From the IMG/VR virus record IMGVR_UViG_2541047843_000002: 38,669 bases of DNA; one strand, 5' to 3'. A model generated the notes under the pieces. That model was not told the DNA's origin and did not search any database. It saw only the letters and a list, made by a program, of their open reading frames with translations. The DNA is from a virus. Lineage: Duplodnaviria; Heunggongvirae; Uroviricota; Caudoviricetes. The position numbers were made by a program, and so were the translations under genes. This document shows positions 19,497 through 21,312 of the stretch, in pieces (within the stretch, counting starts at the first letter, position 1; each line of letters begins with the position of its first letter).

Positions 19497-19678
19497 CTTA
19501 TTATCCTGCATTGTTAAAAACGGCAGAATCCTATGTGACAACAATTAAACGATAGTTAAATGGATTGATGAAAATTAAAACTACACAGGTGGGCTCAGAC
19601 TATTGGAGGAAGTTGGGGACACTCAGAATCCTGTGGAATGAAATAAACCGGTCTATCCGTCCATTACTGGATTTGCCC

Positions 19679-20584
19679 CTATATTTCCAGACACCTGTTA
19701 TCACTTAACCCATTACTGGCTTGCTGCCGCAGATATTCCCGTGGCGAGCGATAACCCAGTGCACTATGCGGATGCCATTCGTTATAATGCTCGAACGCCT
19801 CTGCAAGGTTCTTTGCTGCCGTTAACCCGTCTGGTTTGGGCATGACACTGATGTAGTCACGCTTTATCGTTTTCACGAAGCTCTCTGCTATGCCGTTACT
19901 CTCCGGACTCCGCACCGCCGTGCTCTTCGGTTCAAGCCCCAACATCCGGGCAAACTGCCGTGTTTCATTAGCCCGGTAGCATGAACCATTATCCGTCAGC
20001 CACTCTACTGGAGACGCCGGAAGCTCGTTGCCGAAGCGGCGTTCCACCGCTCCCAGCATGACGTCCTGTACTGTTTCACTGTTGAAGCCGCCCGTAGTGA
20101 CCGCCCAGTGCAGTGCCTCACGGTCACAGCAGTCCAGCGCGAACGTGACTCGCAGTTTTTCTCCGTTATCACAGCGGAACTCGAACCCGTCAGAGCACCA
20201 TCGCTGATTACTTTCTTTCACAGCCACTCTGCCTGTATGTGCCCGTTTCGATGGCGGTACAGCAGGTTTTCGCTCAAGCAACAGCGCATTCTGGCGCATG
20301 ATCCGGTAAACACGTTTGGCATTGATCGCAGGCATACCATCAAGTTCTGCCTGTCTGCGAAGCAGCGCCCATACCCGACGATAACCATACGTGGGCAGCT
20401 CTCCGATAACATGGTGTATACGGAGAAGCACATCCGTATCATCAGTGTGACGACTGCGGCGGCCATCCATCCAGTCATCGGTTCGTCTGAGAATGACGTG
20501 CAACTGCGCACGCGACACCCGGAGACAACGGCTGACTAAGCTTACTCCCCATCCCCGGGCAATAAGGGCGCGTGCGCTATCCAC
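19679..20584 (-). CDS. insD: IS2 transposase OrfB
   Basis: 301-aa DDE transposase matching IS2 InsD as recalled. Confidence 0.9.
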
Positions 20585-20907
20585 TTTTTTGCCCGTCCAT
20601 ATTCAACGGCTTCTTTGAGGAGTTCATTTTCCATCGTTTTCTTGCCGAGCAGGCGCTGGAGTTCTTTAATCTGCTTCATGGCGGCAGCAAGTTCAGAGGC
20701 AGGAACAACCTGTTCTCCGGCGGCGACAGCAGTAAGACTTCCTTCCTGGTATTGCTTACGCCAGAGAAATAACTGGCTGGCTGCCACACCGTGTTGCCGG
20801 GCAACGAGGGAGACCGTCATCCCTGGTTCAAAGCTCTGCTGAACAATTGCGATCTTTTCCTGTGTGGTACGCCGTCTGCGTTTCTCCGGTCCTAAGACAT
20901 CAATCAT
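20542..20907 (-). CDS. insC: IS2 transposase OrfA
   Basis: 121 aa from internal ATG ([26 protein letters not shown]...) matching IS2 InsC as recalled. Confidence 0.85.
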
Positions 20908-21312
20908 CTGCTCTCCAATGACTAGTCTAAAAACTAGTATTAAGACTATCACTTAAATAAGTGATATTGGTTGTCTGGAGATTCAGGGGGCCAGTCTAAT
21001 TACCCTTTTAGCTGCGCTGTATCGTCGCCGTATTCCCGCATTAACCATGACCGTAGCCCGACGGGGAATTCCTTCTGCGTGAGTGTGCGGGAATAATTAA
21101 AAACGATGCACACCGGGTTTTTACCGCGTTAATGATTCGCGGGTTTATCCCGGTGCGATGGTGGAAGAAACAGGAAGCTGTATTACAGAAAGTGCTACTA
21201 CTGTATCCCGATGCGATGTATGTAATGTGAGTCAGATAATGGCACAGGATGTGGTGATGTGGCAGTCTGGAACACAGGATATATTGTCAGAATAAGACCC
21301 GTAGGAATAAAA

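Follow-up and report, generated by a model that had tools for sequence, protein, structure and literature searches.

An IS2 element inserted between the lysis genes and cos of a phage-21-like prophage most likely leaves late gene expression without substantial change, and we put the probability of this reading at about 70%. The basis is read-through: RNA polymerase modified by the prophage Q protein would, we infer, pass over the element. The insertion itself is recent, rare and probably near-neutral. In the sequence of events that we favor, an active IS2 variant would have inserted recently into the spacer between bor/iss and a small ORF of a phage-21-like prophage integrated at icd. Late transcription would begin at pR' with a polymerase modified by the prophage Q, an enzyme that reads through intrinsic and Rho-dependent terminators and would therefore cross IS2. 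Given such read-through, little or no effect on expression of the head and tail genes is expected. The late genes may still be expressed at a modestly lower level, because antitermination is never 100% efficient and IS2 contains several Rho sites.

The window, by which is meant the whole stretch of 38,669 nucleotides analyzed, belongs to a phage-21-like lambdoid prophage integrated at icd. In the near-identical prophage of the complete Escherichia coli genome CEA212U the integrase gene adjoins icd, and the opposite end is marked by a fragment of icd. The cos sequence is of the lambda type (GGGCGGCGACCT), the terminase is Nu1/A and the lysis genes are of the S21/R21 type. From the S21 holin through cos to the terminase the window is 96.8-100% identical to phage 21 (OL657228). 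Its genes begin with int, xis, exo-bet-gam-kil-cIII, N, cI, cro, cII, O, P, the nin genes and Q; they continue with a porin gene on the opposite strand, S, R, Rz/Rz1, bor/iss and IS2. Beyond nu1 come A and then the head and tail genes up to I. The features that bear on the insertion are collected in Table 1.

Table 1 Features of the window around the IS2 insertion and the late operon, by position in the window
Feature	Position	Strand	Evidence or remark
Late antiterminator Q (QuuD type, PF06530)	15758..16141	+	Pfam Phage_antitermQ, E = 7e-54
OmpC/NmpC-like porin gene	16330-17412	-	Between Q and the lysis genes, as in DLP12
pR'-like promoter, ATGGCA-17-TATAAT	17621-17649	+	Consensus scan
tR'-like intrinsic terminator and T run	17839-17860 (to 17868)	+	Scan; strong; ~190 nt past the promoter, just 5' of S
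Lysis cassette: S21-type holin, SAR endolysin, Rz/Rz1	18001..19171	+	First late-operon genes; intact; 96.8% identical to phage 21
bor/iss lipoprotein gene	19203..19496	-	Pfam Lambda_Bor, E = 1e-30; "iss" in PGAP
Target-site duplication ATTAC, left copy	19663..19667	.	Empty sites carry one copy
Complete IS2 (IS3 family)	19668..20998	-	1331 bp; IRR is the low-coordinate end, IRL the high-coordinate end
IRR (~41 bp), TGGATTTGCCCCTATATTTCCAGACACCTGTTATCACTTAA	19668..19708	-	Inverted repeat found; includes the outward -35 of the minicircle junction promoter
insD (orfB), DDE/rve catalytic domain, 301 aa	19679..20584	-	Pfam HTH_21, rve, rve_3
insC (orfA), helix-turn-helix, 121 aa	20542..20907	-	Identical to K-12 InsC1; Pfam HTH_Tnp_1, E = 1.8e-19
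A6G (AAAAAAG) programmed -1 frameshift site	20584..20590	-	Same as K-12; fuses InsC and InsD into the transposase
IRL (~42 bp), TAGACTGGCCCCCTGAATCTCCAGACAACCAATATCACTTAT	20957..20998	-	Inverted repeat found; compared with K-12
Target-site duplication ATTAC, right copy	20999..21003	.	Empty sites carry one copy
cosN, GGGCGGCGACCT	22403..22414	+	Exact match; 1404 bp past the IRL tip
Terminase small subunit Nu1	22592..23140	+	First head gene past cos; Pfam Phage_Nu1, E = 1e-80; intact

The element is a complete IS2 and its ends are intact, as the preliminary description of this DNA had it. Read directly from the sequence, it is exactly 1331 bp long, with ends TGGATTTGCCCC... (IRR, at 19668) and ...GGGGGCCAGTCTA (IRL, at 20998); the 19668 end as read is TGGATTTGCCCCTATATTTCCAGACACC.... 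Full-length ungapped alignment with K-12 IS2A (NC_000913 381260-382590) gave 31 substitutions (2.3%) and no indels, hence 97.7% identity. Over the 45 terminal bases compared, each end is one or two bases off K-12 IS2A, and IRR has one substitution. The imperfect 41/42-bp terminal inverted repeats of IS2 are present (IRL TAGACTGG..., IRR TGGATTTG...), the repeat lengths and the junction promoter Pjunc being those described for the element (PMC3299598). The insC and insD genes are also intact. InsC is identical to that of K-12, and InsD is full length, has no stop codon, retains its Pfam domains and differs from the K-12 protein by eight conservative-looking amino-acid substitutions. The frameshift region GGGCAAAAAAGTGG is unchanged relative to K-12 IS2A, and PGAP annotates the same element in CEA212U with a programmed frameshift. 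All the features of IS2 that can be checked here (length, inverted repeats, 5-bp duplication, two ORFs with the A6G site, and identity) were thus found; the window element shares with K-12 IS2A its length, inverted repeats, InsC, A6G site and 5-bp target duplication, and differs only in the nucleotide and InsD substitutions given above.

The window variant encodes WP_102384962.1. In a megablast search of 5426 complete E. coli genomes IS2 was found everywhere, labeled as IS3-family or IS2 transposase, whereas the form encoding WP_102384962.1 occurs at 100% identity in only a few isolates, most of them human. Eight E. coli records among the matches listed carry 100% identical copies at other loci.

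IS2 transposes by a copy-out/paste-in route through a figure-of-eight and a minicircle, with duplication of 5 bp of target. The element plus both ATTAC copies occupies 19663-21003, and a single ATTAC joins the same flanks in phage 21 and in E. coli Nissle 1917, both of which were read base by base. For a wider count, an 800-bp empty-site query was made by removing the IS and one ATTAC in silico, and a match was counted if it covered at least 80% of the query length. The uninterrupted site was present in 816 of the 5426 complete E. coli genomes, and the best 30 of these 816 matches were full length at 100% identity. A simple transposition with a 5-bp ATTAC duplication, as first proposed, is therefore well borne out.

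Only one of the 5426 genomes, CEA212U, has the IS2 junction of the window. As the same junction is present in this independent complete genome, an assembly artifact was rejected. CEA212U and the window are separated by 29-30 substitutions, and of the two only the window has a 1250-bp ISEc52 insertion; the IS2 insertion is presumably common to both by descent. The ISEc52 junction gave no match in the complete E. coli genome collection, which indicates that the window comes from a close relative of CEA212U outside that collection. In three further genomes, AHB22, AH21I008 and ESBLEC_HM50, this IS2 variant sits 112 bp nearer to iss, in the orientation seen in the window and with the target duplication GATAG. 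This insertion (positions 4134-5474 of locus L002, NZ_OZ547099), the target of which equals window 19551-19555, is an independent event in the same spacer. The identical copies at several loci, the two fresh insertions and the very low frequencies indicate a variant that is probably active at present and a young insertion.

The placement of the element between bor and cos was stated correctly although loosely: bor/iss starts at 19496, with the IRR tip 171 bp upstream of its start codon, and cosN is 1404 bp beyond the IRL tip. The cos cut is confirmed by the linear genome record of phage 21, whose last base corresponds to window 22402. The interval from the IRL tip to cosN holds a 45-aa ORF, a gene for a lipoprotein with a TonB-C domain and other small ORFs. 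The site itself is a non-coding spacer with bor/iss on one side and a small ORF on the other. IS2 interrupts no annotated gene, ribosome-binding site or cos subsite of phage 21, and no recognizable promoter. The element is antisense to the late operon, insC and insD being on the minus strand and S, R, Rz, nu1 and A on the plus strand. It is also in the path of the late transcript: the order is pR'-like promoter, S, IS2, cos and nu1, and the late genes are all on the plus strand. Bor/iss is transcribed in the same direction as the IS2 transposase.

All lambdoid late genes depend on a single transcript, which begins with the lysis genes and continues over cos. The premise that the late transcript must cross cos is thus sound and fits established lambda biology. 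In the window, the promoter-terminator pair at 17621-17868 would, by its resemblance to the lambda pR'-6S-tR' layout, correspond to pR'/tR'. Q is about 1.5 kb from its presumed site of action, with the porin gene in between. The Q protein is 100% identical to that of the IS-free phage PhiR57_1.

Q-modified polymerase is reported to suppress polarity (Forbes and Herskowitz 1982, as cited in a 2025 review), and both Q82 and Q-lambda reportedly suppress pausing at a Rho-dependent terminator (Yang and Roberts 1989, as cited in PMC4005639). By extension from Q-lambda, and from Q82 at one Rho-dependent terminator, a QuuD-type Q would be expected to override IS2. Lambdoid late transcription requires Q, which joins the elongation complex as a stable subunit and confers resistance to terminators (PMC6606751, PMC4005639), and the antiterminated state persists processively for tens of thousands of nucleotides (bioRxiv 10.1101/2022.03.25.485794). 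Moreover, the late transcript already crosses the antisense bor/iss gene in viable relatives such as phage 21.

The IS-free phage PhiR57_1 (PV340572, 49,482 bp) is 97.7-99.95% identical to the window, segment by segment (99.95% over 6262-19667 and 99.8% over 20999-38669), and lacks both IS elements. From int to I, the window encodes 44 of the 45 PhiR57_1 proteins at full length; the remaining one, cIII, is split by the second IS. The earlier statement that the structural genes look intact thus holds for the head and tail genes up to I. Phage 21 shares the icd integration site and the right arm, but its Q/pR' module differs and it has no porin gene; in PhiR57_1 the Q, porin, and head and tail genes up to I match the window. 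Neither phage carries IS2 or ISEc52, and each has one ATTAC at the target. The prophage is thus a mosaic: its lysis-bor-TonB-like-cos-terminase arm (18001-23140) is of the phage-21 type, but its Q/pR' module and porin gene do not come from that type.

Several further differences among the relatives were observed. About 2.5 kb of EaA/Ea22-type early-region genes are missing from the window (window 2057-2068 versus PhiR57_1 2057-4577), and in the equivalent stretch of CEA212U a zapA-like gene is marked frameshifted by PGAP (L001, 4215-4426). The sitABCD iron/manganese transporter is prophage cargo located past the tail fiber genes and outside the window. It is carried by CEA212U, as by PhiR57_1 (locus L006, NZ_CP166707, 7488-10937, and locus L009 of PhiR57_1, 44298-47747, respectively). 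For the side-tail-fiber gene of CEA212U the annotation gives an N-terminal fragment.

The Nissle 1917 copy of the prophage (locus L007, NZ_CP022686, 6449-8054) has a truncated integrase and has lost the xis-to-ral arm beside a frameshifted ISEc52. A lambdoid prophage of this strain ("prophage 3") has been reported to be non-inducible (PMC5987069). The truncated copy is consistent with this report, the equation of the two being putative. Owing to the truncated integrase and the loss of the pL arm next to ISEc52, Nissle 1917 was rejected as an IS2-free control; PhiR57_1 and phage 21 are better IS2-free comparators.

The second IS of the window, ISEc52 in the PGAP nomenclature, is a complete IS911-like member of the IS3 family (1250 bp, 5012-6261) flanked by the target duplication CTG (5009-5011 and 6262-6264). 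It is inserted in cIII, of which codons for residues 1-39 occupy 6378..6262 and those for the rest about 5020..4964, and it is antisense to the pL operon. ISEc52 is absent from CEA212U and from PhiR57_1.

The preliminary description held that IS2, being antisense and carrying its own terminators, is likely to be polar and that virion production may be impaired. On that view transcription from pR' would end in the element and fail to reach cos, expression of the head and tail genes would be too low, and lysis would yield few or no virions. The position is suggestive, as the only known path of late transcription has to cross IS2 on its way from the lysis genes to nu1. The orientation is suggestive too: the polar "orientation I" of IS2, which we take to be that of a transcript coming in through IRR and running antisense to the transposase, matches that of the window, and gal::IS2 is presumably in the equivalent orientation. 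On the late-sense strand IS2 has only unannotated ORFs, so that its RNA is presumably untranslated, and C exceeds G across the element on the plus strand (GC skew -0.10 to -0.18). Such RNA is a classical Rho substrate, and these two properties together mean that an unmodified RNA polymerase would probably be stopped there by Rho. The polarity of IS2 is indeed attributed to Rho-dependent terminators within the element (PMC3737525). In this sense IS2 does carry terminators of its own, but the scan predicted no intrinsic terminator on the late-sense (plus) strand inside it, so that they would be Rho sites only. The closest known case, galEP3 (gal::IS2), resembles the window in that IS2 lies in an operon ahead of distal genes, with Rho-dependent terminators within (PMC3737525); however, the gal polymerase is unmodified, whereas here the late promoter is Q-antiterminated and suppression of polarity is expected. 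Three points weigh against a block: polymerase modified by Q resists terminators and suppresses polarity, and an intact Q gene is present; the relevant strand has no predicted intrinsic terminator; and viable relatives transcribe over antisense bor/iss. We consider a strong polar block unlikely, and the claim that the prophage is impaired for virion production is unsupported, Q and the pR'/tR'-like pair being present and 44 of 45 genes from int to I intact. Among 14 phage records that contain IS2 sequence no viable phage with IS2 at the equivalent place was found; in the best match, PhiR11_1, IS2 lies past the side tail fiber gene rather than in the lysis-cos interval, and the Stx2c phage record with IS2 sequence is unannotated. 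These 14 records hold no direct natural precedent for or against read-through across IS2. A literature search for the definition of IS2 orientations I and II and for IS elements in late operons returned no usable match.

Two other explanations place the consequence of the insertions elsewhere than in IS2 polarity. One is that the prophage is impaired through its size or through ISEc52. In CEA212U, attL and attR are 48,760 bp apart, IS2 included, and ISEc52 with its target duplication adds 1253 bp (5012-6264) to the window prophage. The two IS elements (about 1.3 kb for IS2 and about 1.25 kb for ISEc52) thus bring the genome to an estimated 50.0 kb or so, about 1% longer than the 49.5 kb of PhiR57_1 and near head capacity, which could lower the yield. 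The upper limit of lambda packaging is about 105% of 48.5 kb (~51 kb), so this genome is near the limit of the lambda head and does not obviously exceed it, and the related PhiR57_1, at 49,482 bp, is on record as the genome of a phage for which a host is named; an excess over the packaging size is not supported. As to ISEc52, it splits cIII and is antisense in the pL operon, but cIII is dispensable for lytic growth of lambda and the pL transcript is N-antiterminated, and N is intact here. Impairment by either route seems to us very unlikely. The other explanation, slightly less probable still, is that IS2 alters iss expression by a hybrid promoter, by read-through from the transposase promoter or by displacement of regulatory DNA, and was selected by the host for serum resistance. 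IS2 stands 171 bp upstream of the iss ATG and points in the same direction, with IRR and its outward -35 facing iss, and the independent GATAG insertion of three genomes has this orientation too, at 59 bp from iss on the upstream side. IRR is known to supply the -35 of fusion promoters at ampC, acrEF and neoR (PMC9330008), where it likewise faces the downstream gene. In the window allele, however, the IS tip is 171 bp from the gene and no correctly spaced -10-like hexamer follows it; a hybrid promoter for iss at this tip was rejected, as the promoter scan found no candidate. The 171 bp of native upstream DNA are also kept, and GTCACA-18-AACAAT, the best promoter-like site of the native sequence, is among them. 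An orientation shared by two events has no statistical weight, and the rarity of the alleles (1 and 3 of 5426 genomes) argues against strong selection. In the GATAG allele 17 bp separate TGGAAA, a hexamer of IRR, from TATCGT in the flanking DNA, and this TGGAAA-17-TATCGT arrangement, 59 bp 5' of iss, is a possible, if speculative, hybrid promoter. The most doubtful of the ideas considered here is that IS2 repeatedly enters the spacer upstream of bor/iss in certain extraintestinal E. coli lineages, and that at least the proximal allele would raise the serum-survival lipoprotein Iss through an IS2-flank hybrid promoter and be host-adaptive. If that were true, IS2 insertions near iss would be host-adaptive regulatory mutations and not neutral prophage decay.

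Read-through by Q-modified polymerase across a young, near-neutral insertion thus remains our preferred reading. An IS in an intergenic spacer of a prophage is routine, and all of the above lies inside known biology. IS elements in prophages are common and IS2 is among the best studied of them, so the insertion has little importance beyond annotation. Were IS2 to block late transcription after all, QuuD-type antitermination would fail against the Rho sites of IS2, which would be mildly interesting, and the prophage would be a further example of IS elements "grounding" prophages whose cargo benefits the host (here iss, to which the related genomes add sitABCD). The more general meaning is that polarity arguments taken from ordinary operons are not transferable to phage operons antiterminated by Q or N.
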